In this document: one piece after another, positions 48,620 to 63,943 of the stretch
How the letters are laid out: each line of letters opens with the position of its first letter
Numbering within the stretch: position 1 is the stretch's first letter
Assembly: GCF_000026545.1 (NCBI RefSeq)
Contig: NC_011601.1
DNA: 64,000 nucleotides
Source: Escherichia coli O127:H6 str. E2348/69
GTDB taxonomy: Bacteria; Pseudomonadota; Gammaproteobacteria; Enterobacterales; Enterobacteriaceae
Strand: one strand, 5' to 3'
The notes under the pieces: generated by a model
What the model saw: the letters and a program-made list of their open reading frames with translations, nothing else
What the model was told of the DNA's origin: nothing
Database searches by the model: none
Program-made: the position numbers and the translations under genes

Positions 48620-48737
48620 TGCAATAGTTTCAGTATGGTATTAGCATTGATGCGTTAGATGATGGCTATCTCACTCCAGCCAGAGCCACCAACTCAGGGC
48701 TGAACAGTAAAAAAACCGACGCGAAGTCGGTTTTTTT
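48620..48737 (+). ncRNA. agrB: putative agrB antisense sRNA (approximate bounds) ending at an intrinsic terminator
   Basis: Second copy of the repeat (ttagatgatggctatctcactccagccagagcca, about 48655..48690) followed by hairpin ccgac gcgaa gtcgg and ttttttt at 48709..48737. Confidence 0.4.
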
Positions 48738-48913
48738 ACGTCCTGATTCAGACCTCCTTTCAAATGAATGCCCAACGCTTAATTCACACCTACACCTTTC
48801 TCTACACTTACATATTCGTTAAACCATATGTGTTTTTGACTTGTCCGCTTTGGTTTGTAACGCTGGTGGCGCTGGCGCTACACCTCTCTTTCACATCGTA
48901 ATGAGATACTGAT

Positions 48914-49339
48914 ATGAGCAACATTACCATTTATCACAACCCGGCCTGCGGTACGTCGCGTAATACGCTGGAGATGATCCGCAACAGCGGTACAGAACCG
49001 ACCATTATCTATTATCTGGAAACACCACCGACGCGCGATGAGCTGGTAAAACTCATTGCCGATATGGGGATTACCGTACGCGCGTTGCTGCGTAAAAACG
49101 TCGAGCCGTATGAGAAACTGGGCCTTGCAGAAGATAAATTTACTCACGATCAGTTAATCGACTTTATGCTTCAGCACCCGATTCTGATTAATCGCCCGAT
49201 TGTGGTGACGCCACAGGGAACTCGCCTGTGCCGCCCTTCAGAAGTCGTGCTGGAAATTCTGCCAGATGCGCAAAAAGGCGCGTTCACCAAGGAAGATGGC
49301 GAGAAAGTGGTTGATGAGGCGGGTAATCGCCTGAAATAA
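48914..49339 (+). CDS. arsC: arsenate reductase ArsC (glutaredoxin-coupled)
   Basis: 141 aa MSNITIYHNPACGTSRNTLEMIRNSG... with catalytic Cys in HNPACGTSR. Confidence 0.95.
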   Translation: MSNITIYHNPACGTSRNTLEMIRNSGTEPTIIYYLETPPTRDELVKLIADMGITVRALLRKNVEPYEKLGLAEDKFTHDQLIDFMLQHPILINRPIVVTPQGTRLCRPSEVVLEILPDAQKGAFTKEDGEKVVDEAGNRLK

Positions 49340-49387
49340 AGCGGCTATATTCCCCCACAGGTTGTTAGAAAAATGCGCTTTATTTAT

Positions 49388-49488
49388 GTCGGATGCGACG
49401 CTGGCGCGTTTTATCCGACCTACAAAGTTATGATAATTCGATGAATTGTATGTTATTTGTAGGCCTGACAGTCGTAGCGCATCAGGCG
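49388..49488. repeat. BIME (two REP units in inverted orientation)
   Basis: gtcggatgcgacgctggcgcgttttatccgacctaca ... gtaggcctgacagtcgtagcgcatcaggc. Confidence 0.75.
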
Positions 49489-49955
49489 ATTTTGCTATTT
49501 ACACAGTACTCCCTGCGTGAGATTCCAATTATCGCGTCCAGCATGGTGTATCAGTGAGCTGCTTAGTTATCAGCGATACAGTGCAGCAGTTTAAAGATGT
49601 ACTGGATTATGATCTATCAGTGGTTTACACAATAAATAATTTCAACATACGTTAACCTATTTTATTATTACATATCTAAAACATCACAAAAATATCACTT
49701 CACACACTATCAGAGAACATCATACCTTTTTAAAACGAGCATTTTCGATAGTTGTTAACGTTTTCTTTTGCGATATTATTATTGCCTTTTTTTGCACTCA
49801 AATATTACCAGATGGAAATAAAAGAGAAGTCAAAGGTAATTATATCAGGAAGATATGACGCATTATATTTACTGTATGTAGAAGAAAATCCATTCCTGTT
49901 CTAATTATCCAATTTAAAAATCTTAGCATAAAACAAATGATGAATAAGGAATGTT

Positions 49956-50340
49956 ATGTCAATTGACTTTACCCCAGGTGTAATAAATACATATAACGGT
50001 GATATTTATAACTGCACAACAAATACCGATAATGTTAAAACGCCAGACACACCGAAGTGGCCTTGTGATAACCGGGAAGAACAACACCCCATGAATGCCC
50101 CATTCTCTGGAGAATGGATACACCTCTGAACAATTTGATTTAGCGCAACAACGCCAACAAATTAATGCGTGCCATACGAACACCACATATACAAATGCAG
50201 ACTACTCAAAGTTGAGGCTCAACTTGTAAGTCTTATTAATAACATTGAAACGATAAGCTCGACACCACTTCCGCAAAAGACACAATCAATACTTAATCAG
50301 ATAAATAACATTAGACACGAAAAGATTAAAAACCTCTGAA
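49956..50340 (+). pseudogene. degenerate AT-rich coding remnant (possibly yhiS-like); frameshifted fragments
   Basis: 58-codon [46 protein letters not shown]... then protein-like reading ([35 protein letters not shown]) continues only in other frames with stops; low GC. Confidence 0.3.
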
Positions 50341-50522
50341 TATAGATTATGGAACAATGGATACTCATGCCACGCCCAAAAATTAACTGAGCTCAACTAA
50401 ACAGAAGAGATATAAACATCAGACAGGTTTACGTTACTATCAGGCATATCGCCTCAGAATCAGATGAAAACTATAAAGAAATATCTATTATGGTTTTAAT
50501 ATTTGTTGATAAGGATAGTAAC

Positions 50523-51089
50523 ATGAACATGACAAAAGGTGCACTCATCCTCAGCCTTTCATTTTTGCTTGCCGCATGTAGTTCAATTCCGCAAAATATC
50601 AAAGGCAATAACCAACCTGATATTCAAAAAAGTTTTGTTGCTGTTCATAACCAGCCGGGGTTATATGTTGGTCAACAAGCGCGCTTTGGCGGGAAGGTTA
50701 TCAACGTTATCAATGGCAAAACGGATACGTTGTTAGAAATCGCTGTATTACCGTTGGATAGCTATGCGAAGCCTGATATTGAAGCCAACTATCAGGGCCG
50801 ACTGCTCGCCAGACAAAGCGGCTTCCTTGATCCAGTGAACTATCGTAATCACTTTGTTACCATCCTCGGTACCATTCAGGGTGAACAACCTGGCTTTATC
50901 AATAAAGTCCCGTATAACTTCCTGGAAGTGAATATGCAGGGCATCCAGGTGTGGCATTTGAGAGAAGTGGTTAATACCACCTATAACTTGTGGGATTACG
51001 GCTATGGTGCATTCTGGCCGGAACCGGGCTGGGGGGCTCCTTACTACACCAATGCGGTGAGTCAGGTAACACCTGAGCTGGTCAAATAA
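50523..51089 (+). CDS. slp: outer membrane starvation lipoprotein Slp
   Basis: 188 aa from MNMTKGALILSLSFLLAACSS (lipobox LAAC). Confidence 0.94.
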   Translation: MNMTKGALILSLSFLLAACSSIPQNIKGNNQPDIQKSFVAVHNQPGLYVGQQARFGGKVINVINGKTDTLLEIAVLPLDSYAKPDIEANYQGRLLARQSGFLDPVNYRNHFVTILGTIQGEQPGFINKVPYNFLEVNMQGIQVWHLREVVNTTYNLWDYGYGAFWPEPGWGAPYYTNAVSQVTPELVK

Positions 51090-51241
51090 CACCACCGAAA
51101 GATGCAGATGCTTTCTCAGTATCTGCATCATGCATTACATCAAATTAATACACAGTAAGCTAACTATTATTATAAGCCCTGTCCTGTTAATTACCTTTGG
51201 CAAACTTATTATAAAGTTAATGTACGTACCAGGAGTCGGTT

Positions 51242-51772
51242 ATGTTTCTTATAATTACCAGGGATACGATGTTTTTCACCGCGATGAAAAACATTCTGAG
51301 TAAAGGTAATGTCGTTCATATACAGAACGAAGAAGAGATCGACGTAATGTTGCATCAGAATGCCTTCGTCATTATTGATACATTAATGAATAATGTATTT
51401 CATTCTAATTTTCTCACTCAAATTGAACGATTAAAACCTGTCCATGTAATTATTTTCTCCCCCTTTAATATTAAACGCTGCCTGGGGAAAGTACCGGTGA
51501 CCTTTGTTCCGCGAACTATCGCCATCATCGATTTTGTCGCACTCATCAATGGCAGTTACTGCTCTGTGCCTGAAGCGGATGTGTCCCTCTCGCGCAAGCA
51601 GCATCAGGTTCTGAGCTGCATTGCGAATCAAATGACAACGGAAGATATTCTGGAGAAACTGAAAATATCGCTAAAAACGTTCTACTGCCATAAACACAAT
51701 ATCATGATGATCCTCAATCTTAAGCGGATCAATGAGCTGGTACGCCATCAGCATATTAATTATCTGGTGTGA
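51242..51772 (+). CDS. dctR: LuxR-family regulator DctR (YhiF)
   Basis: 176 aa MFLIITRDTMFFTAMKNILSKG...; C-terminal HTH (LSRKQHQVLSCIANQMTTEDILEKL). Confidence 0.92.
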   Translation: MFLIITRDTMFFTAMKNILSKGNVVHIQNEEEIDVMLHQNAFVIIDTLMNNVFHSNFLTQIERLKPVHVIIFSPFNIKRCLGKVPVTFVPRTIAIIDFVALINGSYCSVPEADVSLSRKQHQVLSCIANQMTTEDILEKLKISLKTFYCHKHNIMMILNLKRINELVRHQHINYLV

Positions 51773-51828
51773 ACGATTGAACAATATAAAGAGGCCCAGC
51801 AACAGCCAGACCTCCCGTTAATTATACG

Positions 51829-52857
51829 TTATGCAGTAACGCCTTCCGGTATCAACGAAGCAATTTGCTTACGCCATTGCGCTTGCTCCTGTTCACCTTC
51901 TGTACGTTGACCATAAAGTTGCGCTATCTGCGTACCATCATGGGCAAACAATTCCAGACTGGTTACGTGACCATCGCTGGTCGGTTTACGGGTAACCCAG
52001 GCTTCAGCAATGCTCTCTTCTAATAGATGAAGGGTAAACGTCGGGTTGAAAATATTCAGCCAACCTTTCATTGGCACCACTTTTTCTACCACACCGGTGA
52101 AAATCTGTACGCAGCCACGGTTGCCAACAAACACCATGATTTCATTGCCATCCTGCTGTGCAGATTCAAGAATTTGCGCCAACGCACTGTTGGATACTTT
52201 GCAGGCCAAATCGTCTGCCACCAGATTGAACGCCTGTTGGCGCGTCAGGTTGTGGCGCTTGAGCAACGTAAAAAACTGATGAACGTCGGTCATCGCCCGC
52301 CACTCTTGCTCGACCACACTGGCATCGGCTCGCGTTTGAACAACTGGCGCATCAACGGCTTTTAACTCAAGCGGCGTATTCTCATCGGTGATAAACCGTG
52401 CCAGAAGCTCACTCCATGCCGCCATATCGGTATTGTCGGTGGCATAAACTTTTAGTAATGCATCGCCCTGATGATCAAAGAACTGAATACTCTGGCGTTC
52501 GCCACGAGCCGTGTTTTCTTTGATGTGGAAAACACTGGCCCATTGATTGAGAAACAGACGTAAATCCAGCGCGCGCGGATTGAGGATCAATCCGGCATGT
52601 CCGTTCAAATGCTGGTTTGTGAACGAGCCAACTTGCTCATGGACTGCATATTCATTACGACAAATACATTTGGTTTCACCAACGCTTTCCAGCGCCGCCA
52701 GAATTTCACGAATATCGCCGCGCATCCGCCACGCGTCGTGCGTGACGCGTGCAAATGCCAGTTCTGCTTCGCTGATATTCATTAAACCTGCGATGTCACG
52801 CGCGTACTTTCCGGGATTTTGTTCTTTTAACTCAAGCCAGCGTGTGTAGTGGTTCAT
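51829..52857 (-). CDS. chuS: haem oxygenase / haem degrading protein ChuS
   Basis: 342 aa MNHYTRWLELKEQNPGKYARDIAGLMNISEAELAFARVTHDAW...; downstream of chuA on the same strand. Confidence 0.93.
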   Translation of the reverse strand: MNHYTRWLELKEQNPGKYARDIAGLMNISEAELAFARVTHDAWRMRGDIREILAALESVGETKCICRNEYAVHEQVGSFTNQHLNGHAGLILNPRALDLRLFLNQWASVFHIKENTARGERQSIQFFDHQGDALLKVYATDNTDMAAWSELLARFITDENTPLELKAVDAPVVQTRADASVVEQEWRAMTDVHQFFTLLKRHNLTRQQAFNLVADDLACKVSNSALAQILESAQQDGNEIMVFVGNRGCVQIFTGVVEKVVPMKGWLNIFNPTFTLHLLEESIAEAWVTRKPTSDGHVTSLELFAHDGTQIAQLYGQRTEGEQEQAQWRKQIASLIPEGVTA

Positions 52858-52905
52858 TGTCTCTCTTCCTTCCAGATAAATGCCCCGAAATATCGGGGCA
52901 GATGA

Positions 52906-54888
52906 TTACCATTGATAACTCACGAAAATTTTTCCGTTACGACCATCCTGTGGGATGCCTTGCGGCGACCAGTACTCTTTATCGAAGGCGTTGCCCAATA
53001 CCAGAGTAGTGGTCATGCCTTTGAGCGCCTGCTGCCCTTGATAACTGACGTAGAAATCATTCACACCATAGCCAGGTTGTTTGCTGTAGCTGCTGCTGAT
53101 ATGTGTTGAGCGATCGGCAAACGTACCGACCCAACCAACAGAGAAGCCACTGTGAGCGATCGGAATATTCAGGGTACTGGTAACGGTATCCGGGTTAATG
53201 CTGGAGATATATTCCCCGGTATCGGTGTCTTTGCCGCGGGTACGGTTATAGGCCACATCAAGGCTAAACAGATCAGTGGTATATTTCGTCATCACATCCC
53301 AGCCCCAGATTTTGGCGTTCGGGACGTTATACGACATAGTTGTCGCCGCCGCGAAATCGACGGTCGTGGAGATATAATCTTTCGCTTTGGTATCAAAGTA
53401 GCTGGCTTTAAATTCCAGAGCATCATTGGACAACATCAGGTCATCAAAACGCAGCCCAAAACCGTACTCCTGAGTTTCGTTAGTTTCCGGACGTAAGTTC
53501 GGGTTTGGCACCCAATAGTTGGTATAGAAGCGACCAATCGAGAAGTGTTTAGAATCGTTATACATTTCGCCCATCGTCGGGGCGCGGAATGCCTGAGCAT
53601 ATGAGCCAAATAACATCAGCCAGTTGGTCGGGTTGATAGTCATCCCCGCACGAGATGACCATTTGTCGGCATCAACATCTTTGTAGCCGTCGCTGCTACC
53701 GCGATAACTGTCATAGCGGGTTCCGCCAAGCAGGGTAATCGGCAGATCGCGTAAGGTGATCTCATCTTGTAGCCAGCCAGAGCTAAAATCGATTTTTGCT
53801 TGCGGGAAGCCCGTCGTCGCGCCACCCGGATGTTGTTCCTGACGATAATACTCACCGCCATATGTCAGTAAGTGAGAAGCGAAACTGTCGGCAAATAGAG
53901 TGGAACGGTTCTCCAGCCTTGCTCCTTTTGTTATCTGTTCACGATACTCGCCTGAACTCCCCGTGTTTTGCGCATTAATACGGACTTCCGACCAGTAAAT
54001 TTTTGCATCTGCATTTAACCAGTCGTTACCCTGCGGGGCGAGTTTATAAGAAAGCTGCGCATCGCGTTGAATTGTTGAACGATCGACCATCGGGTTGCTG
54101 CTATCAGAAGCTTCAACGGTCTGCGGATTTTTTGGTTCACGCGCGTCGTTGTTGTAGTAACGCACTAAACCGCTCAGAGACTGGGCTGAATCAATTTGCC
54201 AGGTCCCTTTCGCCAGCATGTTATTAATGGACTCGTCATTCGGCGCGGTTTCACCATTGCTCTGGCGTAAATCACCCCGATCGCGACTGGACCAGGCCAC
54301 AATACCATCCAGATTTTCAGTTCGCCCAAACGCGCTCGCGCCTAATCCCAGGCTATGGTCCCCCGTGCCGCCAGTACCAAAGACACTAAAACCACTACTT
54401 TGTCCTTCCTGCAATAAATCTTTTGCATCGACCGTATCGTAGGAGATCACCCCACCCAGCGCGCCACTGCCATACAGTAATGCTGAAGGTCCGCGAACAA
54501 TCTCAACACGCTTGATCAGCGCCGGATCAAGAAAAGTACCATTCAGGTGTCCGGTATCCGTTCCCTGGCGAACACCATCGACAAGAACCAGCACGCCGCG
54601 ATGATCATAGCCACGCATATTTACATCCTGACCGTTGGTTCGTCCGGTACCATCAAGAGTAATTCCAGGAACATGACGCAGCAAATCAGTGGCTGAAGTA
54701 GCCGTTTGATTTTCAGGAGCGGAAGTGTCGATAACGCTGACCATCATAGGCGCTTCGAAGGAACTACGTGCATTCCCCGTTGCCGTAACGGTCATGGTTT
54801 CAGTAGCAAAAGCAAACGTTGGCAAGGTGGCAGAAACAGCCAAAGCCAACAAACTCAAACGCAACGAGGTAAATTGCGGACGTGACAT
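52906..54888 (-). CDS. chuA: TonB-dependent outer membrane haem/haemoglobin receptor ChuA
   Basis: 660 aa; signal peptide MSRPQFTSLRLSLLALAVSATLPTFAFA, TonB-box-like ETMTVTA, C-terminal ...KIFVSYQW terminal aromatic. Confidence 0.95.
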   Translation of the reverse strand: MSRPQFTSLRLSLLALAVSATLPTFAFATETMTVTATGNARSSFEAPMMVSVIDTSAPENQTATSATDLLRHVPGITLDGTGRTNGQDVNMRGYDHRGVLVLVDGVRQGTDTGHLNGTFLDPALIKRVEIVRGPSALLYGSGALGGVISYDTVDAKDLLQEGQSSGFSVFGTGGTGDHSLGLGASAFGRTENLDGIVAWSSRDRGDLRQSNGETAPNDESINNMLAKGTWQIDSAQSLSGLVRYYNNDAREPKNPQTVEASDSSNPMVDRSTIQRDAQLSYKLAPQGNDWLNADAKIYWSEVRINAQNTGSSGEYREQITKGARLENRSTLFADSFASHLLTYGGEYYRQEQHPGGATTGFPQAKIDFSSGWLQDEITLRDLPITLLGGTRYDSYRGSSDGYKDVDADKWSSRAGMTINPTNWLMLFGSYAQAFRAPTMGEMYNDSKHFSIGRFYTNYWVPNPNLRPETNETQEYGFGLRFDDLMLSNDALEFKASYFDTKAKDYISTTVDFAAATTMSYNVPNAKIWGWDVMTKYTTDLFSLDVAYNRTRGKDTDTGEYISSINPDTVTSTLNIPIAHSGFSVGWVGTFADRSTHISSSYSKQPGYGVNDFYVSYQGQQALKGMTTTLVLGNAFDKEYWSPQGIPQDGRNGKIFVSYQW

Positions 54889-55178
54889 AGCGATTCTCCA
54901 TGAGGAAAATAAAAAATGCTGGCTGCCTGGGTTAATACCGGGGTGGCTGGCGAAAAATAAATTTATTTACAATTCAAATGATTAGATATCACCACGGGAA
55001 GCTATTAGCGTATATATCCCGTAAAATTGCCGAATATTTCTGATAATTCAGCAAAAGCACGCCCTCTTTGTCAGGCAAAGTAGTACGCCACGTCTGAAGT
55101 GAAGAGTGCTGTGCGTTTTCCCTTACAAAAGATATGATTTTGTTATCCATGATGTCATATTTTGTTAAACTCAAACGT

Positions 55179-55197
55179 GATAATGAGAATTATTATC
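55179..55197. promoter_or_regulatory. Fur box upstream of chuA
   Basis: gataatgagaattattatc versus Fur consensus GATAATGATAATCATTATC; about 290 bp upstream of the chuA ATG, implying a long 5' leader. Confidence 0.7.
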
Positions 55198-55529
55198 GAT
55201 CAATTTTTTATGATCAAGCTTTTTTTAACCGCCATTAACGCAATAAACAGGGGGTTATGAAATCTATCCAGCATCCAGAAAACCATCCTGTGTTTATGGC
55301 TATCCCCCCACAACCTCATCACAAAACGTTGTCGTTAACAGTGATAATTTTCTCTTCTCTTTGCTCTGCAAGCCGCGATATCTCCGGGTTCTCAGCTTTT
55401 TCCCGCGCTGAAATTTAATCGGTAACAAGAACATTAGCTGACGAAGCATCTTGATAAAAATCAAAAATAAATACGCTTGTAACGCCGTGCGTATTGAATC
55501 GACGGTTGTATTTCATATATAACTCAAAT

Positions 55530-55548
55530 GATAATCATAATCATTCTC
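55530..55548. promoter_or_regulatory. Fur box upstream of chuT
   Basis: gataatcataatcattctc, near-consensus Fur box, about 105 bp upstream of the chuT ATG. Confidence 0.7.
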
Positions 55549-55652
55549 AATTTGATAAGAGTTCTCACATTATGCCAAGGATCATCACCAGGCCGTTTCT
55601 TTTTTCCCCACTAACGTTATGTATTTCAGCCGTGGCCTCTGCCGCGAAGACC

Positions 55653-56486
55653 ATGGTAAAACGAAAAAAATTGTTTACGGCATTACTGGCTTTTAGCTGG
55701 ACTTTTAGCGTAACGGCTGCCGAACGTATCGTGGTCGCAGGAGGATCGCTGACGGAGCTAATCTACGCGATGGGCGCTGGCAAACGCGTGGTTGGTGTCG
55801 ATGAAACGACATCTTATCCACCAGAAACCGCCAAACTGCCGCATATTGGTTACTGGAAACAACTCAGCAGCGAAGGCATTTTGTCACTTCGCCCGGATAG
55901 CGTAATTACCTGGCAGGATGCAGGACCGCAAATTGTGCTCGACCAACTGCGGGCGCAAAAAGTCAACGTCGTCACTCTGCCGCGTGTACCAGCCACCCTT
56001 GAGCAGATGTACGCCAACATTCGCCAACTGGCAAAAACGTTACAGGTTCCTGAACAAGGCGAGGCGCTGGTGACACAGATCAACCAACGCCTGGAGCGAG
56101 TACAGCAAAACGTGACGGCCAAAAAAGCCCCGGTTAAAGCCATGTTTATTCTCTCCGCAGGCGGAAGTGCGCCACAGGTTGCCGGTAAAGGCAGCGTCGC
56201 GGACGCCATTCTTTCGCTTGCCGGAGCAGAAAACGTCGCTACCCACCAGCAGTACAAAAGCTACAGCGCGGAATCGCTGATTGCGGCTAACCCTGAAGTG
56301 ATTGTCGTCACCTCACAAATGGTCGATGGCGATATTAATCGGCTACGTTCTATTGCCGGAATTACCCACACTGCCGCCTGGAAAAACCAGCGCATTATCA
56401 CCGTTGATCAAAACCTGATTCTGGGAATGGGTCCGCGTATTGCTGATGTCGTTGAGTCTTTACACCAGCAGCTTTGGCCGCAATAA
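55653..56486 (+). CDS. chuT: periplasmic haem-binding protein ChuT (ABC transporter substrate-binding)
   Basis: About 277 aa from MVKRKKLFTALLAFSWTFSVTAAERIVVAGGSL (signal peptide); ORF track shows a longer in-frame extension from 55494, which cannot be excluded. Confidence 0.85.
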   Translation: MVKRKKLFTALLAFSWTFSVTAAERIVVAGGSLTELIYAMGAGKRVVGVDETTSYPPETAKLPHIGYWKQLSSEGILSLRPDSVITWQDAGPQIVLDQLRAQKVNVVTLPRVPATLEQMYANIRQLAKTLQVPEQGEALVTQINQRLERVQQNVTAKKAPVKAMFILSAGGSAPQVAGKGSVADAILSLAGAENVATHQQYKSYSAESLIAANPEVIVVTSQMVDGDINRLRSIAGITHTAAWKNQRIITVDQNLILGMGPRIADVVESLHQQLWPQ

Positions 56487-56505
56487 ATGGATTTAAATCA
56501 GACGA

Positions 56506-57843
56506 ATGAACACAAATAACACCCTGGATCTCACGCCACATTTTGCTTTAGACGGTGATCAGCCATTTAAAGACAGGCGCGCCATGATGCCGTTTCGTGG
56601 GGCCATTCCGGTTGCCAAAGAGCAACTGGCACAGACCTGGCAAGAGATGATCAATCAAACGGTATCACCACGTAAGCGACTGGTTTACCTACACATTCCT
56701 TTTTGTGCGACACACTGCACGTTTTGTGGTTTTTATCAGAACCGTTTTAATGAAGATGCGTGTGCTCATTATACCGACGCCCTGATTCGTGAAATAGAAC
56801 TGGAAGCAGACAGCGTATTGCATCAGTCTGCCCCCATCCACGCGGTCTATTTCGGTGGCGGTACGCCTTCCGCGCTTTCAGCACACGATTTGGCCAGAAT
56901 CATCACCACATTACGAGAAAAGCTGCCACTGGCCCCTGATTGTGAAATCACTATTGAAGGCCGGGTACTGAATTTTGACGCTGAGCGAATCGATGCTTGC
57001 CTTGATGCAGGAGCAAACCGCTTCTCAATTGGTATTCAGTCGTTTAACAGCAAAATCCGCAAGAAAATGGCCCGCACCTCGGATGGCCCAACCGCTATTG
57101 CGTTTATGGAAAGCCTGGTCAAACGCGATCGTGCCGCGGTGGTCTGTGACCTGCTGTTTGGTCTGCCGGGTCAGGATGCGCAAACCTGGGGAGAAGATCT
57201 GGCTATTGCCCGCGATATCGGTCTCGACGGCGTCGATCTCTATGCGCTCAATGTCCTGCCCAATACACCGCTGGGCAAAGCCGTGGAAAATGGGCGTACT
57301 ACCGTGCCCTCTCCGGCAGAACGTCGCGATCTTTACCTGCAAGGGTGTGATTTTATGGACGATGCCGGTTGGCGCTGCATCAGTAACAGCCACTGGGGCC
57401 GTACCACACGCGAACGCAATCTCTATAACCTGCTGATTAAACAAGGTGCCGATTGTCTGGCCTTTGGTTCCGGAGCCGGCGGTTCGATTAATGGTTACTC
57501 CTGGATGAACGAACGCAATCTTCAGACCTGGCATGAATCCGTCGCAGCAGGCAAAAAACCGCTGATGATGATCATGCGTAACGCCGAACGTAACGCGCAG
57601 TGGCGTCATACCTTGCAGTCGGGCATTGAAACGGCGCGTGTACCGCTGGACGAACTTACGCCACATGCCGAAAAACTCGCGCCGTTACTGGCCCAGTGGC
57701 ACCAAAAAGGCTTAAGCCGCGATGCGTCAACGTGTCTGCGGTTGACCAATGAAGGTCGTTTCTGGGCAAGCAACATTTTGCAGTCTCTTAATGAACTGAT
57801 TCAGGTACTTAATGCGCCAGCAATTGCGCTTGAAAAACCATAA
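56506..57843 (+). CDS. chuW: radical SAM anaerobilin synthase ChuW (HemN-like)
   Basis: 445 aa; radical SAM CxxxCxxC motif (FCATHCTFCGF). Confidence 0.92.
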   Translation: MNTNNTLDLTPHFALDGDQPFKDRRAMMPFRGAIPVAKEQLAQTWQEMINQTVSPRKRLVYLHIPFCATHCTFCGFYQNRFNEDACAHYTDALIREIELEADSVLHQSAPIHAVYFGGGTPSALSAHDLARIITTLREKLPLAPDCEITIEGRVLNFDAERIDACLDAGANRFSIGIQSFNSKIRKKMARTSDGPTAIAFMESLVKRDRAAVVCDLLFGLPGQDAQTWGEDLAIARDIGLDGVDLYALNVLPNTPLGKAVENGRTTVPSPAERRDLYLQGCDFMDDAGWRCISNSHWGRTTRERNLYNLLIKQGADCLAFGSGAGGSINGYSWMNERNLQTWHESVAAGKKPLMMIMRNAERNAQWRHTLQSGIETARVPLDELTPHAEKLAPLLAQWHQKGLSRDASTCLRLTNEGRFWASNILQSLNELIQVLNAPAIALEKP

Positions 57844-57855
57844 CAGGAGTGATTT

Positions 57856-58350
57856 ATGAGCCATGTCTCGTTACAGGAATTTTTGAAAACGGAGCCAGAC
57901 GGTACGCTGGAGGCGATCGCCGAACAATACAACACCACGCTGCTGGAGGTAGTGAAAAATCTGCCCTCTCCGACTGTTGTGCCAGGTGATAAATTCGATA
58001 CTGTCTGGGATACCGTCTGCGAATGGGGCAACGTCACCACGTTAGTACATACTACCGATATAATACTCGAATTTAGCGGCGAACTGCCTTCGGGTTTCCA
58101 TCGCCACGGCTATTTCAACCTACGCGGAAAGCACGGCATGTCCGGGCATATCAAAGCAGAAAACTGCACGCATATTGCCTTGATCGAACGTAAATTTATG
58201 GGCATGGACACCGCCTCTATTCTCTTTTTCAATAAGGAAGGCAGCGCAATGCTGAAAATCTTCCTCGGTAGGGATGATCATCGTCAGCTCCTGAGCGAAC
58301 AAGTCAGCGCCTTCCATGCTCTGGCAGCATCGTTAAAGGAACACGCCTGA
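57856..58350 (+). CDS. chuX: haem-binding protein ChuX
   Basis: 164 aa MSHVSLQEFLKTEPDGTLEAIAEQYNTTLLEVV...; chu operon position. Confidence 0.9.
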   Translation: MSHVSLQEFLKTEPDGTLEAIAEQYNTTLLEVVKNLPSPTVVPGDKFDTVWDTVCEWGNVTTLVHTTDIILEFSGELPSGFHRHGYFNLRGKHGMSGHIKAENCTHIALIERKFMGMDTASILFFNKEGSAMLKIFLGRDDHRQLLSEQVSAFHALAASLKEHA

Positions 58351-58973
58351 TGACACCGTGGCTACTCTTTGGCGCAGGCGGAAAAGGTGTGGGTGCCAGA
58401 ACGCTTGAACTGGCGCTGGCGGAACAACGTCCGGTCGTTGCTGTCATTCGTCATGCCAATGCCGCCATGAAACTGGCGCAACAAGGCGTACAGGTTTTTA
58501 CAGGCGACGCCTGTGATGCCAGCGTAGTCGCGGCTGCTTGCCGCGCAGCTGGCCCGGATGCGCTTATCATCTCAACAATGGGCGGAGCTCAGGATTATCT
58601 GGCGCACAGAACAGTGATTGATGAGGCCGAGAAGGCTGGCATCAGTCGCATGATTCTGGTGACCTCTTTGGGATGCAGCGATAGCTGGCCGTTTTTATCA
58701 GAGCGGGCAAAGGCTGCGTTTGGTCAGGCGGTACGGGAAAAAACGCTGGCGGAAACCTGGTTGCAAACCAGCCAGCTTGATTATGCCATTCTCCGCCCCG
58801 GCGGTCTGCTTGATGGTGCGGCAACGGGCAAAGCACAACGGATACAAAATCAGGAGTGTCATGGTTTTGTTAACCGTGCTGATGTCGCCGCACATATCCA
58901 TGAACTGGCAAATGCGCCAGCACTTAACCAGCAGGTCTACAGTCTGATTGAACCGGACCTGAAACCGGCGTGA
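58350..58973 (+). CDS. chuY: NAD(P)H-dependent anaerobilin reductase ChuY (Rossmann fold)
   Basis: 207 aa MTPWLLFGAGGKGVGART... glycine-rich dinucleotide loop. Confidence 0.9.
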   Translation: MTPWLLFGAGGKGVGARTLELALAEQRPVVAVIRHANAAMKLAQQGVQVFTGDACDASVVAAACRAAGPDALIISTMGGAQDYLAHRTVIDEAEKAGISRMILVTSLGCSDSWPFLSERAKAAFGQAVREKTLAETWLQTSQLDYAILRPGGLLDGAATGKAQRIQNQECHGFVNRADVAAHIHELANAPALNQQVYSLIEPDLKPA

Positions 58974-59021
58974 TCCCCCGGCGCGGCATATCCGCGCCGT
59001 AATGTCGTAACGGAGTTTTGC

Positions 59022-60014
59022 GTGCTCAAGGATTCACTCTCTTCCGCCAGGATCTTTATGGGGCTATCACTATTATTGCTCGCTCTGGTGCTGTTCAGTG
59101 CCAGTCAGGGAGCGTTAAAGATCAGTTTTGATGCCCTTTTTGATGAGGAATACCGCGATATCTGGCTCAATATTCGTCTACCACGGGTTTTGCTGGCGGT
59201 GCTGGTAGGTGCAGCGTTGGCAACCGCAGGGGTAATTATGCAGGGGCTTTTTCGCAACCCAATGGCTGACCCTGGATTACTTGGCGTCAGTAGCGGTTCT
59301 GCATTAATGGTTGGCGTTGCTATTGTGCTGCCCTTCTCCTTCCCAGTGGTGCTGGTGCTCTATGAGCAAATGGTGTTTGCCATTGCCGGAAGTTTAGTGG
59401 TCTGCACCATCATTTTTCTCATCACGCAGCGCCATCGCGATGGCAGCATGATGCAATTATTACTCGCCGGTATCGCCATCAATGCCCTGTGCGGCGCAGC
59501 GATCGGCATCCTGAGCTATATCGGCGATGAGCAGCAGCTACGACAACTCACATTGTGGATGATGGGCAATCTTGGACAGGCGCAATGGCCGACGTTATTG
59601 GTTGCCAGTTCATTCATCCTACCGGCCATTATCGCAACAACTTGTCTCGCCGGAACGCTGAATTTACTGCAGCTCGGTGATGAAGAAGCCCACTACCTCG
59701 GCGTGAACGTGAAGCGTAAACGCCAGCAATTACTGTTAGTGAGCTCACTGCTCGTTGGTGCTGCCGTATCGGTAAGCGGCATTATCGGCTTTATTGGCCT
59801 GGTGATCCCGCATCTGATTCGCATGACTACCGGGGCAAATCACCGCTGGCTAATCCCTTGTTCCGCCCTCGCCGGAGCCTGTTTATTGCTGATGGCAGAC
59901 ACGCTTGCCCGCACGCTGGTACAGCCAGCAGAAATGCCCGTGGGATTATTAACCAGCCTGCTTGGTGGCCCTTATTTTATGTGGTTGATTCTGCGCAACC
60001 GGAGGATCACATGA
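59022..60014 (+). CDS. chuU: haem ABC transporter permease ChuU (FecCD family)
   Basis: 330 aa hydrophobic protein; non-ATG start in ORF track; 4-nt overlap with chuV start. Confidence 0.88.
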
Positions 60015-60781
60015 TCAGCGCCCAGAATCTGGTTTATAGCCTTCAGGGGCGGCGTCTGACTGATAATGTCTCGCTGACTTTTCCCGGTGGGGAAATTGTT
60101 GCCATCCTCGGCCCTAATGGTGCGGGAAAATCTACGCTGCTTCGCCAGCTAACCGGCTATCTTCAACCTGATAGCGGCGAATGTTGGTTGTTTAATAAGC
60201 CATTAAATGAATGGTCGATTACTGAACTGGCGAAACACCGGGCCGTGATGCGTCAAAATAGCCACATGGCGTTTCCATTCAGCGTACAAGAAGTTATCCA
60301 GATGGGGCGGCATCCGCATCGTACTGGTAATCAGGATAATGAAACAGCACAAATAATGGCGTTATGTGACTGTCAGGCGTTAGCAAACCGCGACTATCGG
60401 CAATTATCCGGTGGTGAACAACAGCGCGTGCAATTAGCGCGCCTGCTGGTGCAACTCTGGGAACCTACTCCCTCACCGAAATGGTTATTTCTTGATGAAC
60501 CAACTTCGGCGCTGGATATTCACCATCAGCAGCACTTGTTTCGTTTATTACGCCAGTTAGTTCACGAACGGCAGTTCAATGTTTGCTGCGTATTGCACGA
60601 TCTAAATCTTGCCGCGCGTTATGCAGACCGTGTTGTATTAATGCAAAAAGGAAAGGTTATCGCAAATGGTAAGCCGCAGGACGTATTGACACAGCAGGCG
60701 CTGACAATGCTCTACGGCGCGGATATTACCGTACTTAAAGATCCTGCCAACCATTCACCACTGATCGTCCTCGATCATTAA
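60011..60781 (+). CDS. chuV: haem ABC transporter ATPase ChuV
   Basis: 256 aa from [16 protein letters not shown]; Walker [18 protein letters not shown]; ORF track upstream extension rejected. Confidence 0.92.
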
Positions 60782-60787
60782 AACCAA

Positions 60788-60812
60788 CAGGAGTACCGCC
60801 CTGGTACTCCTG
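60788..60812. terminator. hairpin between convergent chuV and yhiD
   Basis: caggagtacc gccct ggtactcctg perfect 10-bp stem; weak U-tract. Confidence 0.45.
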
Positions 60813-60832
60813 CGAATAAATAACTATACAGA

Positions 60833-61480
60833 TTAGCTAATTGAAACGCCTTTCACCCCTGCCATACCTTTTAATAATCGCAACAGATCTTCTATCGACG
60901 TTGTGGCATGAAGCTGGATATCAATGGCGACCACTTCATGATCTTCATTTTCCTGCAACGAAACTAAATCCGTTTTTATTTTTTGCTGCTTAAACCAGTC
61001 GAGCATTGATACCGTATTACCGTTCACTAATGTCAGCTGTAAATGGTAATTTTTGTTCATCAGGCGGAAGGTTAATTGATGGAAGACTTCCAGCACCAGC
61101 AAGGTCATCACTGAACCATAAATACCCAGTTCGTACATACCGCTGCCAATAACCATACCAATGGCTGCGGTCACCCAGATATCCGCTGCCGTCGTCAGAC
61201 CTACAATATTTTGGTTACGAACGAGAATGTTACCTGCACCGATAAACCCGACGCCCGTCACAACCTGAGCAGCAATACGGCTGGGATCCAGTCCGACGTG
61301 ACCTAAAGACAGCACGTCAGCAAAACCATATTTCGAAACAATCATAAACAGGGCGCTTCCCATGCCAATTAATACATGTGTACGTAACCCTGCTCCTTTG
61401 CCGCGCATTTGCCTTTCCATGCCAATAGCGCCACAGGCAATTACCGCAAGTATAAGTCGTATAATAAATTCTGCTGTCAT
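60833..61480 (-). CDS. yhiD: MgtC-family inner membrane protein YhiD
   Basis: 215 aa from MTAEFIIRLILAVIACGAIGMERQMRGKGAGLRTH. Confidence 0.93.
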   Translation of the reverse strand: MTAEFIIRLILAVIACGAIGMERQMRGKGAGLRTHVLIGMGSALFMIVSKYGFADVLSLGHVGLDPSRIAAQVVTGVGFIGAGNILVRNQNIVGLTTAADIWVTAAIGMVIGSGMYELGIYGSVMTLLVLEVFHQLTFRLMNKNYHLQLTLVNGNTVSMLDWFKQQKIKTDLVSLQENEDHEVVAIDIQLHATTSIEDLLRLLKGMAGVKGVSIS

Positions 61481-61543
61481 ATAAAAATGCAAAAAGGAGC
61501 AGCAAGATGGCTCAACTTGCTACTCCTTTTTACTTGTACCTTA

Positions 61544-61870
61544 TTAATTCGGCAAGTCATTAGATGCTTGATTTTTGAAGGTATACAAATTTTTCTGCGG
61601 GTTTTTCTTGCAGTATTCGATCACTTTAGGAATTTGAGTGAGATCGGTTTCATTTAAAGTAACGGTATCGCCACCTTTATATACTGTTTCTTCATGCAGC
61701 ATCCACCACGCAACTGGTGTCATTGCTTTTGGATTCAGATCAATAAATTCCTGGCAGGTCATATCTTTAGCGGATTCATTGGCTGCCAGCGCAGATTGTG
61801 CGTTCACCAGTGACAAAGCCGCTACAGCGCCCATAAAAATAAACGCTTTACGGAGAGATGAAATGTTCAT
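61544..61870 (-). CDS. hdeB: periplasmic acid-stress chaperone HdeB
   Basis: 108 aa from MNISSLRKAFIFMGAVAALSLVNAQSALA. Confidence 0.94.
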   Translation of the reverse strand: MNISSLRKAFIFMGAVAALSLVNAQSALAANESAKDMTCQEFIDLNPKAMTPVAWWMLHEETVYKGGDTVTLNETDLTQIPKVIEYCKKNPQKNLYTFKNQASNDLPN

Positions 61871-61985
61871 TTTGTAACCCATTCAATATAGAGATTATAT
61901 ACAAACAGGAGGAATAGCTGCTTTTAAAGAAGATATTCCGGCCTGTTCAATATGCAAGGAAATACGATGTAACGCATTCCCGGAA

Positions 61986-62318
61986 TTACATATCTTTCTT
62001 AATTTTGTCCCATTCGCCTTTAACTTTATCTTTAAAGCTGGCTTTTTTATCCTGAGTACAAGCCTGAACGATAGCTGGGGTTACGGTTGCAATACCCTGA
62101 ACATCTAAAACCGCATCTTCTGGTTTATCTTTGTTGTTCAGTGCTTCAGCAAAACCAACTGCAGTTGGCTGGAAGGATTCGTCCACAGCCAGGAAATCTT
62201 CACAGGTCCAGGAGTTGACCGGTTTTTTGTTATCAGCTGCTTTTTGTGCATCCGCTGCATTGCTCACTACTGGCAGAAGAAGCAGACCACCAAGAATAAC
62301 GCCTAATACTTTTTTCAT
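61986..62318 (-). CDS. hdeA: periplasmic acid-stress chaperone HdeA
   Basis: 110 aa MKKVLGVILGGLLLLPVVSNAADAQKAADNKKPVNSWTCEDF... Confidence 0.96.
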   Translation of the reverse strand: MKKVLGVILGGLLLLPVVSNAADAQKAADNKKPVNSWTCEDFLAVDESFQPTAVGFAEALNNKDKPEDAVLDVQGIATVTPAIVQACTQDKKASFKDKVKGEWDKIKKDM

Positions 62319-62572
62319 CGTAATATCCTCAACTATAAAGTGAAAGAGCCGTCACGAATCAATTTCGACACTGAGGTTATAACCTGGTTTTCTGTATATG
62401 TCATGTTGATGGAAAATATCAAAATCAGATATTTTTATTTCAATACAATGAGTTACAGATGCATCAGATACTGTAATTAGGAAATTTTTATTAAATCGAC
62501 TGCATTCTTAGACGCGTTTTTGGCATAGATTGATAGCAGGGGATTTTCTTCTTAATTTTATAGGGTGGTTCT

Positions 62573-63145
62573 ATGTTATATATAGATAAGGCAACAATTT
62601 TGAAGTTTGATCTGGAGATGCTTAAAAAACATCGCAGAGCAATCCAGTTTATTGCCGTGCTGCTGTTTATCGTCGGGTTGCTGTGTATCAGTTTTCCGTT
62701 CGTCTCTGGCGACATTTTAAGCACAGTAGTGGGTGCATTATTAATCTGCTCGGGCATTGCGCTTATTGTCGGGCTATTCAGCAACCGCAGTCATAATTTC
62801 TGGCCGGTATTATCCGGTTTCCTCGTCGCAGTCGCCTATTTATTGATCGGCTATTTCTTCATCCGTGCACCAGAGCTGGGCATTTTTGCCATTGCGGCAT
62901 TTATTGCCGGTTTGTTCTGTGTGGCAGGGGTTATTCGCCTGATGAGTTGGTATCGTCAGCGTTCAATGAAAGGCAGTTGGCTACAGCTCGTTATTGGTGT
63001 GCTGGATATCGTCATTGCCTGGATATTCCTTGGTGCTACGCCGATGGTGTCGGTAACGCTGGTTTCCACACTGGTGGGAATTGAACTGATATTTAGCGCC
63101 GCCAGTCTGTTCAGCTTCGCCAGTTTGTTCGTTAAAAAGCAATAA
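62573..63145 (+). CDS. hdeD: acid-resistance membrane protein HdeD
   Basis: 190 aa MLYIDKATILKFDLEMLKKHRRAIQFIAVLLFIVGLL... Confidence 0.94.
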   Translation: MLYIDKATILKFDLEMLKKHRRAIQFIAVLLFIVGLLCISFPFVSGDILSTVVGALLICSGIALIVGLFSNRSHNFWPVLSGFLVAVAYLLIGYFFIRAPELGIFAIAAFIAGLFCVAGVIRLMSWYRQRSMKGSWLQLVIGVLDIVIAWIFLGATPMVSVTLVSTLVGIELIFSAASLFSFASLFVKKQ

Positions 63146-63161
63146 TTATCCCTATTTCCAC

Positions 63162-63196
63162 CTGGATCATAGTCACATTAAGTGACTATGATCCAG
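63162..63196. repeat. perfect 15-bp inverted repeat immediately downstream of hdeD
   Basis: ctggatcatagtcac attaa gtgactatgatccag. Confidence 0.6.
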
Positions 63197-63943
63197 TTAA
63201 TACTCTCTTAGCTATACAGTGTTTCAGTTCAATTACGCACTATCATTGAAACAATTGCCTGCTGTTGATTATTTCAACCTACTGAATTTAATCTGATTTT
63301 TTTCGTTCCATGGCAAATTAGCCATTTCAAACATTATCATGGCTGATATTTTCCGTGGTCAGGTTTAATGTTTTAAAAGTGCTGTGGGAAAGTGAACAAA
63401 GAGTTCCGTAAGCGTTGATGCTATGGGCGGTTAAATAAGCAATCCGGGTTCATTTTTTTGCAACTGGCGTTGATTACATTGCATAAATATCCGTGTCTCC
63501 AGACGCTATATAAAAACCTGAAGACATGAATGAGTTATTTAATCAGGTAATTTTAATGCGTTAAAAGAAAGCTGGCAATCCAATTGCCAGCCTAAGTCGA
63601 AACAAGGAGACTCGATATTTAAATCGGATTACATTTTAACTTTAGTAATATTCTTCAGAGATCACAAACTGGTTATTGATAACTTATTCTTGGGCAGCAA
63701 TCCGCAAAAGTTAACCTTTTGTTTACTAGTTACAAATTGATAACAACCAGGAATCTTACTTAGGACCAATATATGGAGTGCGTGATGGATAAATCTGAAG
63801 TATTGATTAGTGTTAATAGACGTATTAGTTCACGAAGGGCAAAGTTCTTATAGGCGTTTACTATATTGAACAACGATTCGGACAAGGATGTAAATAATGG
63901 AAAGGATGACATGTTCGAAACGATAACGGCTAAGGAGCAAGTT

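Follow-up and report, generated by a model that had tools for sequence, protein, structure and literature searches.

Genes between dctR and yhiD

The window that we analysed is a 64-kb stretch of DNA in which eight haem genes lie between dctR and yhiD. Alignment with the empty site of K-12 MG1655 indicated that 51774-60827 (9,054 bp, GC 50.2%) is strain-specific relative to K-12, with junctions at 51773/51774 and 60827/60828. The first-pass annotation had described a haem-utilisation segment of about 9 kb at 51773-60832, within 1-5 bases of these limits. The same alignment confirmed that dctR and yhiD are neighbours in K-12, where they are convergent and a 35-bp filler takes the place of the chu segment. 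Positions 50500-62000 were 100% identical to EPEC E2348/69 O127:H6, in agreement with the expectation of a non-K-12, pathogen-associated strain. The genes and the features at the ends of the segment are as follows.

51242-51772, plus strand: dctR (yhiF), left flank, acid fitness island (RefSeq annotation of the identical record)
51774-60827: chu segment of eight genes, strain-specific DNA relative to K-12
51789-51816, minus strand: intrinsic terminator hairpin of chuS, left end of the segment (terminator scan)
51829-52857, minus strand: chuS, cytoplasmic haem oxygenase/haem-degrading protein, 342 aa (RefSeq annotation)
52906-54888, minus strand: chuA, TonB-dependent outer-membrane haem/haemoglobin receptor, 660 aa, intact
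55572-56486, plus strand: chuT, periplasmic haem-binding protein, 304 aa as annotated, own signal peptide from residue 28
56506-57843, plus strand: chuW, radical-SAM methyltransferase of anaerobic haem degradation (TIGR04107 equivalog)
57856-58350, plus strand: chuX, cytosolic haem carrier (TIGR04108)
58350-58973, plus strand: chuY, anaerobilin reductase
59022-60014, plus strand: chuU, haem ABC transporter permease (RefSeq annotation, FecCD/BtuC-type matches)
60011-60781, plus strand: chuV, haem ABC transporter ATPase (NF010068 equivalog)
60787-60813, minus strand: strong hairpin, right end of the segment (terminator scan; fold -19.4 kcal/mol, z -5.1)
60833-61480, minus strand: yhiD, right flank, acid fitness island (NF007431, 398 bits; RefSeq annotation)

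The proposed arrangement, with chuS-chuA on the minus and chuTWXYUV on the plus strand, was borne out by the open reading frames and the RefSeq annotation. These two sources, together with family and structure matches, showed that all eight genes of the divergent chuS-chuA and chuT-W-X-Y-U-V groups are intact members of the chu/shu system. Poor identity to chu/shu proteins or a frameshift in chuA had been named as findings that would speak against the identification. We observed neither: identity was not poor, and the 660-aa ChuA frame is uninterrupted. ChuA scored 587.7 bits with TIGR01785 (cut-off 316.85), and its residues 29-660 align with solved ChuA (PDB 9DHE) and ShuA (PDB 3FHH). For each of the other proteins, either a solved Chu/Shu protein could be aligned along the entire length or the score lay above an NCBIfam equivalog cut-off. 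Full-length alignments were obtained for ChuS with PDB 4CDP/1U9T (763 bits), for ChuY with PDB 5GUY/5FFQ (440 bits) and for ChuX with PDB 2OVI. ChuX also reached 210 bits with TIGR04108 (cut-off 110), while ChuW reached 570 bits with TIGR04107 (cut-off 400) and ChuV 393.6 bits with NF010068 (cut-off 261). ChuT residues 49-304 matched ShuT (PDB 2R7A) at 539 bits.

The chuS terminator hairpin (fold -18.3 kcal/mol, z -4.8) was kept in all chu-positive Escherichia, E. albertii included. The second hairpin, at 60787-60813, is part of the strain-specific DNA and points towards the end of chuV. A U-tract comes after it on the minus strand, so it is likely to be the terminator of hdeAB-yhiD. The identity, site and regulation of the segment are established knowledge, and its identification is ordinary. 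Beyond this, the comparisons described below add two refinements, the antiquity of the cluster in the genus and its composite origin.

Distribution and age of the cluster

At least 80% of the query was present in 2,234 of 5,426 complete E. coli genomes, and nearly all of the others carried the empty site. E2348/69, APEC O1 and O157:H7 carried the segment; K-12, E. coli C and O103:H2 lacked it. The Clermont scheme uses chuA as a marker that is present in phylogroups B2/D/E/F and absent from A/B1/C, and the distribution across E. coli strains fits this use, as had been claimed. The intact chuA of the window fits a chuA-positive phylogroup, and E2348/69 is a B2 strain; the remaining PCR markers of the scheme (yjaA, TspE4.C2, arpA) fall outside the window.

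The cluster had also been described as inserted into the acid fitness island. This is correct relative to K-12, but as a description of an event it is less likely to hold. We observed chu at the same position, with the same junctions, in E. albertii (L047) and in three other non-coli Escherichia lineages (L037, L058 and L003). Per-lineage nucleotide identity was 87-96% for the chu genes, tracking that of the flanks (84-95%). One of these lineages, L003, had independently suffered a partial deletion of the segment.

We weighed whether chu might be a recent mobile pathogenicity island, inserted by horizontal transfer into an ancestral, K-12-type dctR-yhiD arrangement. Several points would suit such an origin. 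Strains either have or lack the whole 9 kb with precise limits, and its genes serve virulence-associated iron uptake. No trace of chu was detected in the K-12 filler, and the literature describes chu as island-encoded or horizontally transferred (PMC9002310). We nevertheless consider it unlikely. No integrase or transposase was found in the segment, where all eight ORFs are haem genes; there was no tRNA in 45000-64000, and no flanking repeat of at least 8 bp was shared by the junctions. The GC content of the segment is typical for E. coli, and it is the flanks, at 38-40%, that are atypical (the rest of the window has 53.2%). The identical junctions in E. albertii and the three other lineages, the comparable divergence of chu and its flanks, and the partial deletion in L003 also argue against recent insertion.

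Since the same junctions recur in other Escherichia and no mobility signature was seen, loss in the K-12 lineage is likelier than gain here, and the deletion in L003 indicates that loss does happen at the dctR-yhiD site. We infer from these sequence comparisons that the chu cluster is an old feature of Escherichia rather than a recent mobile insertion. By parsimony over five outgroup or divergent lineages, the empty site of K-12 is probably a secondary loss, although the 35-bp filler contains no recognisable chu remnant and no deletion scar. Homologous recombination through the flanks may also have spread chu between lineages.

Promoter regions and probable traces of two haem operons

The region between chuA and chuT, including the start of chuT, was divided into the following features.

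54886-54917, minus strand: FourU RNA thermometer in the chuA leader (Rfam RF02597, shuA_thermo)
54890-54971, minus strand: chuA leader, 3' part, homologue of the hemP-hemR spacer in hemPRSTUV loci
54972-55172, minus strand: middle of the chuA leader, the position occupied by hemP in other genera
55179-55217, minus strand: chuA promoter, -35 at 55217-55212 and -10 at 55194-55189 (promoter scan)
55218-55493: AT-rich, poorly conserved spacer between the back-to-back promoters
55494-55571, plus strand: chuT promoter and leader, -35 TTGAAT at 55494-55499 and -10 TATATA at 55516-55521
55572-55652, plus strand: chuT codons 1-27, MPRIITRPFLFSPLTLCISAVASAAKT, putative relic of a receptor signal peptide, in frame with chuT

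Divergent Fur-box promoters had been proposed for this region. A Fur consensus search gave two matches with 2 mismatches each, one per promoter (55179-55197 and 55530-55548); beyond these predicted sites the 64 kb gave no further match, and the expectation from shuffled sequences was 0. The first box is overlapped by the chuA promoter, whose start site at about 55179 gives a leader of about 291 nt; a 291-nt chuA UTR has been mapped by dRNA-seq in EHEC (PMC9002310). The thermometer scored 60.1 bits with RF02597 (gathering score 58), and in its fold UUUUCCU pairs with GGAGAAU and occludes the Shine-Dalgarno sequence. The function of this FourU thermometer has been shown experimentally (PMC3660397). 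For chuT, the start site at 55530 places the second Fur box at +1 to +19 and leaves a 42-nt leader. The published shuT start site, Fur site and thermometer coincide exactly with these coordinates (PMC5458455), while a stable chuT thermometer hairpin was not reproduced by MFE folding.

From the sequence and from the published experiments on orthologues, iron limitation would cause Fur to leave the two back-to-back promoters. The first would drive chuA-chuS through the leader of about 291 nt, its last 30 or so nucleotides forming the thermometer, and the second, with its start site coinciding with the Fur box, would drive chuTWXYUV. Family assignments suggest that ChuA would move haem across the outer membrane using TonB, and that ChuT would hand it to the ChuUV ABC importer. 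They further suggest that ChuS would degrade haem aerobically, with ChuW (radical SAM), ChuY (reductase) and ChuX (carrier) handling it under anaerobic conditions. This account of haem uptake and its regulation is taken from the identity of the genes to characterised orthologues.

When we examined the related loci outside Escherichia, we observed that 74 of 74 carried hemP-R-S-T-U-V on one strand, without chuWXY. Their products were similar to ChuA (57-88% aa identity) and ChuS (61-86%), reaching about 80-88% in the closest genera (Citrobacter, Kluyvera and Enterobacter), whereas identity among the transport proteins was only 31-37% for T, 56-66% for U and 48-55% for V. With nhmmer, the chuA promoter showed homology to that of hemP (E 3.7e-4), and the 3' part of the chuA leader matched a spacer profile built from 69 of these loci (nhmmer E 1.1e-16). 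A GCCAGCC...AGCCAGC motif at 54918-54952 in the leader resembles, by eye, the published HmuP-responsive element (HPRE; PMC9131926).

The middle of the chuA leader, about 200 nt, could be a decayed hemP, that is, a pseudogene turned 5' UTR. It sits exactly at the hemP position of the 74 related loci, between the homologous promoter and the homologous hemP-hemR spacer. It contains a non-conserved ORF of 53 aa (ATG at 55150) whose truncation point differs among lineages. An ATG aligns with that of hemP, and pairwise BLASTP against Citrobacter koseri HemP gave E 0.002. In shuffle tests against relatives, z ranged from -0.4 to 3.3: it reached 2.6-3.3 against two relatives and was near 0 against six others. 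Neither the Pfam hemP model (PF10636) nor a hemP CDS DNA profile matched this stretch. A purpose-built 69-sequence HemP profile gave no match at E<=10 in the chuA leader, and when set against the leader with Z=1 it scored 0.2 bits (E 0.05). Replacement of hemP by unrelated DNA would be an equally possible source. The sequence tests thus did not demonstrate a hemP relic inside the chuA leader, and we give the decayed-hemP reading slightly less than an even chance.

The other half of the cluster resembled a different operon. In Citrobacter, chuTWXYUV has counterparts in the same order and with the same gene lengths (80/87/87/77/88/79% aa identity) downstream of a TonB-dependent receptor gene, here called R2, whose product shares only 30% identity with ChuA. 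Homology to the 5' region of the Citrobacter and Klebsiella R2 genes covered the chuT promoter, Fur box and leader, and the 5' DNA of chuT was 73% identical to Citrobacter R2 upstream DNA over 89 nt (blastn, E 2.8e-8). We built a profile from 49 unique R2 N-termini and searched it against 5,494 six-frame peptides. It detected the ChuT N-terminus at E 6.5e-8, and the corresponding sequences of three other Escherichia lineages at E 4.5e-9, 1.3e-7 and 4e-4; the next-best match had E 0.6, and the ChuA signal peptide E 4.8. The native chuT Met is kept internally in other Escherichia.

These 27 residues could instead reflect a mis-annotated start, with the real one downstream, or a chance resemblance among signal peptides. 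ChuT has its own canonical signal peptide from residue 28, residue 49 is the first of the solved ShuT chain, and signal peptides resemble one another in composition. A downstream start is also available in the window, where codon 28 is ATG; in other E. coli, codon 21 is an in-frame GTG and codon 34 a TTG. We find this very improbable. The R2 profile matched the stretch at E 6.5e-8, against E 4.8 for the ChuA signal peptide, and the -35, -10, Fur box, Shine-Dalgarno sequence and ATG of chuT are all colinear with the 5' region of R2. In seven Escherichia sequences the upstream frame is uninterrupted even with a 9-nt indel. Ahead of mature ChuT, non-B2 E. coli lack any further ATG, and the GTG at codon 21 itself falls within the receptor-derived stretch. 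In addition, the mapped shuT start site lies 42 nt upstream of the ATG, and that leader confers Fur and temperature control (PMC5458455). Judged by this homology, a deleted R2 gene appears to be the source of codons 1-27 of chuT, start codon included, and of the promoter, Fur box and leader ahead of them.

Both the hemPRSTUV-type and the R2-TWXYUV-type loci occur on one contig of one genome. In the window, no co-directional hemTUV follows chuS, which is succeeded by its terminator and then by dctR. An R2 receptor as first gene is likewise absent: about 27 N-terminal codons are left, and tblastn gave no R2 remnant in the intergenic region. We infer that chu is a head-to-head composite of the remains of two separate haem operons. 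The first, of hemPRSTUV type, would have kept its promoter, the hemP-hemR spacer, hemR (chuA) and hemS (chuS) and lost hemP and hemTUV. From the second, receptor-TWXYUV, the receptor gene would have been deleted almost entirely, a deletion that would have fused its promoter, Fur box, leader, start codon and 27 codons in frame to chuT. The spacer between the promoters was highly divergent, with a 10-bp indel in L058, and resembled neither ancestral operon context. A 53-aa ORF within it (55257-55418, plus strand) was rejected as a gene, its Pfam match being at chance level only.

Together, these comparisons give us high confidence in the view of a complete, functional-looking chu cluster that is old in Escherichia, was probably lost in K-12-type lineages and arose by the joining of two operons.

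Comparison with known systems

The closest known systems are chu of O157:H7 and UPEC and shu of Shigella dysenteriae type 1, which have the same eight genes, divergent layout and chromosomal site, flanked by dctR (yhiF) and yhiD. The window also agrees with them in its Fur boxes, in the 291-nt leader of chuA that ends in the FourU thermometer and in the 42-nt chuT/shuT leader, and other E. coli chu loci were 96.6-100% identical to it. There was no difference of substance, only a minor allele at chuT codon 28, which is ATG in the B2 window (..AAKTMVKR..) and Ala in three other E. coli (..AAKTAVKR..).

The hemPRSTUV/hmuRSTUV loci (Yersinia type; Citrobacter, Kluyvera, Enterobacter, Buttiauxella and others) share with chuA a homologous Fur-box promoter and receptor-upstream spacer. 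In contrast to them, chu has no recognisable hemP and no hemTUV after chuS, and its transport genes are on the opposite strand. The S. dysenteriae locus has also been reported to have no hemP homologue (PMC6158557).

The R2-TWXYUV operon of Citrobacter, Klebsiella, Raoultella and Kluyvera is uncharacterised, and its promoter, Fur box, Shine-Dalgarno sequence and first codons are homologous to those of chuT. It is headed by the R2 receptor of 710-714 aa, which in Escherichia would be reduced to the N-terminal codons, and its chromosomal location is another one, which in Citrobacter lies between cueR and copA. As an analogy only, the small protein MntS reportedly arose from the signal peptide of a transporter gene that was since lost (bioRxiv 10.1101/2023.06.02.543501); a signal-peptide-coding 5' end and a regulated promoter would have outlasted gene deletion in both cases. 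MntS, as described there, is free-standing, whereas the R2 relic would be fused in frame to chuT and supply its promoter and start codon.

The chu segment, its genes and its regulatory signals

We observed that window positions 50500-62000 were 100% identical to the chromosome of EPEC E2348/69 (O127:H6) over all 11,501 bases. The strain is chuA-positive, pathogen-type E. coli, as the first-pass annotation had held. In K-12 MG1655, dctR and yhiD are convergent neighbours. A base-by-base comparison with K-12 indicated that homology ends after 51773 and restarts at 60828, which leaves 51774-60827 (9,054 bp) as strain-specific DNA, in place of 35 bp found in K-12 only. The boundaries proposed earlier were right to within a few bases. 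The ORF list, the RefSeq annotation and the MG1655 comparison all agreed on chuS-chuA (minus strand) and chuTWXYUV (plus strand) lying between the two K-12 neighbours.

Genes of the region (window coordinates; ORF list and RefSeq annotation)
51242-51772, plus strand, dctR
51829-52857, minus strand, chuS
52906-54888, minus strand, chuA
55572-56486, plus strand, chuT
56506-57843, plus strand, chuW
57856-58350, plus strand, chuX
58350-58973, plus strand, chuY
59022-60014, plus strand, chuU
60011-60781, plus strand, chuV
60833-61480, minus strand, yhiD

All eight chu genes were intact. ChuA (660 aa) reached 588 bits, against a cut-off of 317, on the TonB-dependent haem receptor model, and its residues 29-660 aligned with the solved ChuA (9DHE) and ShuA (3FHH). 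ChuS, ChuX and ChuY aligned over their full length with solved Chu/Shu proteins, as did ChuT over its mature part (residues 49-304), and ChuW, ChuX and ChuV exceeded the NCBIfam equivalog cut-offs. With these structure and family matches, neither poor identity to chu/shu proteins nor a frameshift in chuA was found. The island is real and had been rightly interpreted; it is also a textbook locus, already known, and the literature already describes chu genes within the acid fitness island.

A Fur consensus search (at most 3 mismatches) gave only two sites in the 64 kb, at 55179-55197 and 55530-55548, with 0 expected by chance. Both predicted sites are at the chuA and chuT promoter regions, in agreement with the divergent Fur-box promoters that had been proposed. 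The first coincides in part with a promoter-like site on the minus strand and lies some 291 nt before the chuA ATG; the chuA 5' UTR mapped by dRNA-seq in EHEC is 291 nt long (PMC9002310). The chuT ATG comes exactly 42 nt after the start of the second, in agreement with the published shuT transcription start and its Fur site at +1 to +19 (PMC5458455). The shuA/chuA thermoregulator was matched above the Rfam gathering score at 54886-54917 (minus strand), with four uridines paired to the Shine-Dalgarno sequence in the fold. MFE folding predicted no stable hairpin in the 42-nt chuT leader (-2 kcal/mol), and because of this the published chuT/shuT thermometer was left without computational confirmation, which is unsurprising for a labile element.

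Judging from orthologues and established knowledge, iron limitation would lift Fur repression at both promoters, and the thermometer would melt at 37 C. TonB-energised ChuA would carry haem across the outer membrane, and ChuT, ChuU and ChuV would bring it into the cytoplasm. ChuS would degrade haem aerobically, and ChuW, ChuY and ChuX would process it anaerobically.

Strong terminator hairpins are present at both ends of the segment. The hairpin at 60787-60813 appears to be the terminator of the hdeAB-yhiD transcript and lies within chu-specific DNA, where K-12 has the 35-bp filler; chu-positive and chu-negative strains therefore end the hdeAB-yhiD operon with different sequences. A 53-aa ORF at 55257-55418 (plus strand), with a GGGGG ribosome-binding site, was rejected as a gene: it is in the least conserved intergenic part, has a 10-bp indel in L058 (a divergent Escherichia lineage) and matches no family. 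On NZ_LT827011.1 the RefSeq tags skip from RS20250 (chuA) to RS20265 (chuT), two calls having apparently been withdrawn in the 683-bp intergenic region. This gap fits the small non-conserved ORFs seen between the two genes.

Two observations concern the left flank. In 48381-49339, arsC (48914-49339) comes next after dinQ and an Rfam AgrB match (48655-48739, 91.5 bits); the interval contains no arsR or arsB ORF. We take arsR-arsB-arsC to be contiguous at the corresponding place in K-12, so the window strain seems to have an orphan arsC. Just upstream of slp, at 49956-50333, RefSeq records a frameshifted, incomplete 'hypothetical protein' pseudogene within strongly AT-rich DNA (GC 0.32-0.37); K-12 has a similar fragment adjoining an IS5 at the corresponding place.

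Distribution and age of the locus

At least 80% of the query was carried by 2,234 of 5,426 complete E. coli genomes, and nearly all the others had the empty site. E2348/69, APEC O1 and O157:H7 are among the carriers listed, and K-12, E. coli C and O103:H2 among the listed genomes with the empty site. This pattern is consistent with chuA being a Clermont phylogroup marker. One O157:H7 genome, Z1833, was matched in two pieces, and its permease bears only the label 'FecCD family', a sign that chuU may be disrupted there. In DA61218 only slp was matched, suggesting that most of the acid fitness island has been lost.

No integrase, transposase or tRNA was found in the chu segment. The junctions had no target-site duplications or inverted repeats of at least 8 bp, and the two 7-mers that they share are in line with chance (about 0.8 expected). 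The GC content of the segment is ordinary (50.2%); it is the acid-fitness flanks (38-40%) that form the low-GC part.

We scanned for ChuA in one genome per bacterial species and mapped the genes of the loci. The order slp-dctR / chuS-chuA and chuTWXYUV / (yhiD)-hdeB was also seen in E. albertii (L047) and in two divergent Escherichia lineages, L037 and L058, in which flank identity to the window is only 85-95%. All three, E. albertii included, keep the left junction and the chuS terminator. The right-end hairpin is kept in L037 and L058; E. albertii does not keep it and has no yhiD. (At L047 4037-4103, 65 bp separate hdeB from the end of chuV, so that the right neighbour differs from that of E. 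coli.) Within each lineage, divergence from the window was similar for chu and flanking genes, as expected under vertical descent. The block could also have been transferred between lineages by recombination through the flanks.

Deletions do happen at this site, as seen from a partial loss in a third divergent lineage, Escherichia sp. MOD1-EC7003 (L003, 5880-6530). Here chuTWXYUV and the chuT promoter are lost, and chuA-chuS and their promoter are kept. An ERIC/IRU-like repeat lies at the deletion point adjoining yhiD, and another copy interrupts the chuA leader. This strain is left with a receptor without its dedicated ABC transporter.

The most economical reading, by parsimony and not as proof, is that the common ancestor of E. 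coli and E. albertii already had chu here, the K-12-type site having arisen by deletion afterwards. We looked for a chu remnant in the 35-bp K-12 filler and rejected it: there were no shared k-mers of at least 11, and a weak 8-mer likeness to the chuS terminator was within chance. chuA is a phylogroup marker used worldwide and commonly called horizontally acquired; the evidence here points instead to loss in the A/B1/C lineage as probably the informative event.

The 5' ends of chuT and chuA

The annotated ChuT N-terminus is MPRIITRPFLFSPLTLCISAVASAAKT. After this first stretch comes a second, canonical signal peptide, MVKRKKLFTALLAFSWTFSVTAA, followed by ERIV, and the solved ShuT chain begins at residue 49. 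Residues 1-27 match the signal peptide of R2 (MLPRINQRPFILSALTLCMSGAASAATS...), the TonB-dependent receptor encoded first in an R2-TWXYUV operon of Citrobacter, Klebsiella, Raoultella and Kluyvera. A profile of 49 distinct R2 N-termini was run against the full six-frame translation (5,494 peptides) of the window together with four Escherichia loci.

Matches of the R2 N-terminal profile (E value)
ChuT N-terminus, L037: 4.5e-9
ChuT N-terminus, window: 6.5e-8
ChuT N-terminus, E. albertii (L047): 1.3e-7
ChuT N-terminus, L058: 4e-4
Next-best match anywhere: 0.6
ChuA's own signal peptide: 4.8

The homology extends upstream: the chuT -35, -10, Fur box, Shine-Dalgarno and ATG are colinear with the R2 5' region of Citrobacter and Klebsiella (blastn E 2.8e-8; alignment A6). 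From the N-terminus and the upstream DNA together, we infer that about 2 kb of R2 was deleted and that chuT came under the control of what remained, the regulated promoter, leader and start codon of R2. Derivation of the promoter region from the R2 gene would be the reason why the shuT Fur site is downstream of the promoter, a location called 'relatively unique' (PMC5458455). A remnant of the R2 receptor body was sought in the chuA-chuT intergenic region and gave chance-level tblastn matches only. None of the best 120 R2 relatives was labelled Escherichia.

The native ChuT start (..MKKLF..) survives as an internal Met in E. albertii, L037 and L058. In E. coli chuT, an in-frame 9-nt deletion (window 55653-55670) took out this start codon. 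In three E. coli of other lineages (L088-L090), codon 1 is the sole ATG before mature ChuT, which leaves GTG (codon 21) and TTG (codon 34) as the only alternative starts. Codon 28 is a new ATG (Met) in the window's B2 allele and Ala in those three. The deletion and the R2 relic would therefore give a ChuT precursor with two hydrophobic N-terminal segments and KTxVKRKK between them.

The chuA leader resembles the front end of hemP-hemR loci. Its 5' end (promoter and Fur box) matches a hemP-promoter profile (E 3.7e-4), and its last 82 nt match a hemP-hemR spacer profile (E 1.1e-16). Within these 82 nt, a GCCAGCC...AGCCAGC motif at 54918-54952 looks, by eye, like the HmuP-responsive element known from the leaders of haem receptor genes (PMC9131926).

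The middle of the leader (about 200 nt) occupies the position of hemP in other genera; one ATG aligns with the hemP ATG (MAFFT), and an initial pairwise BLASTP against HemP gave E 0.002. No match to the leader was obtained with the Pfam hemP model, with a 69-sequence HemP profile (E 0.05, 0.2 bits even with Z=1) or with a hemP coding-sequence DNA profile. In a dinucleotide-shuffle test the z score varied with the relative, from -0.4 to 3.3, and homology was not supported. Where the leader ORF is cut short differs between lineages. A hemP relic in the leader middle is thus kept as a suggestion from position only. We conclude from these searches that hemP is gone from the chu locus; the S. dysenteriae locus has already been stated to be without it (PMC6158557). 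The kept motif raises the question of whether the repressive element of the chuA leader is a leftover of HemP-dependent control.

Comparison with two haem operon types

In all 74 non-Escherichia loci with enough upstream sequence (74/74), the order hemP-hemR-hemS-hemT-hemU-hemV was found on one strand; the genera include Kluyvera, Citrobacter, Enterobacter, Lelliottia, Buttiauxella and Cedecea.

Identity of the window's Chu proteins to hemPRSTUV-type counterparts
ChuA: 57-88% (about 80-88% in the closest genera)
ChuS: 61-86%
ChuT: 31-37%
ChuU: 56-66%
ChuV: 48-55%
ChuW, ChuX, ChuY: no counterpart in these loci

Relatives of ChuW (83-88% identity) are present in the same genera but in another operon. 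This is the R2-TWXYUV operon, in which a 710-714-aa TonB-dependent receptor comes first, followed by T-W-X-Y-U-V on one strand. Its proteins are 80 (T), 87 (W), 87 (X), 77 (Y), 88 (U) and 79% (V) identical to those of the window, whereas R2 is only 30% identical to ChuA. One genome has both operon types on the same contig, separated by about 70 kb (L055, L091). These identity patterns indicate that the Escherichia cluster joins a receptor/oxygenase half to a transport/anaerobic-degradation half, head to head, and the redundant parts of each ancestral operon are missing from it.

Taken together, we consider it likely that chu/shu is as old as the genus and was formed when the stumps of two ancestral Enterobacteriaceae haem operons were fused head to head. 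The chuT/shuT regulatory region known from experiments (Fur site at +1 to +19, 42-nt thermometer leader and start codon) would be what was once the 5' end of an outer-membrane receptor gene, now deleted, hence the vestigial receptor signal peptide on the ChuT precursor, and the long chuA leader would be the remains of a hemP-hemR front end, with a motif like the HmuP-responsive element and no HemP to act on it. The probable K-12 loss, the composite origin and the receptor-derived chuT 5' end were not found in the literature searched, which took in only part of the older chu/shu papers. What is added to the known locus is its evolutionary anatomy, of moderate interest to specialists. If the origin is composite, the ChuT precursor should have tandem hydrophobic N-terminal segments. 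Such an origin would also explain two features that the experimental papers noted without explanation, the 'unusually long' 291-nt chuA leader and the 'relatively unique' place of the Fur site downstream of the shuT promoter.
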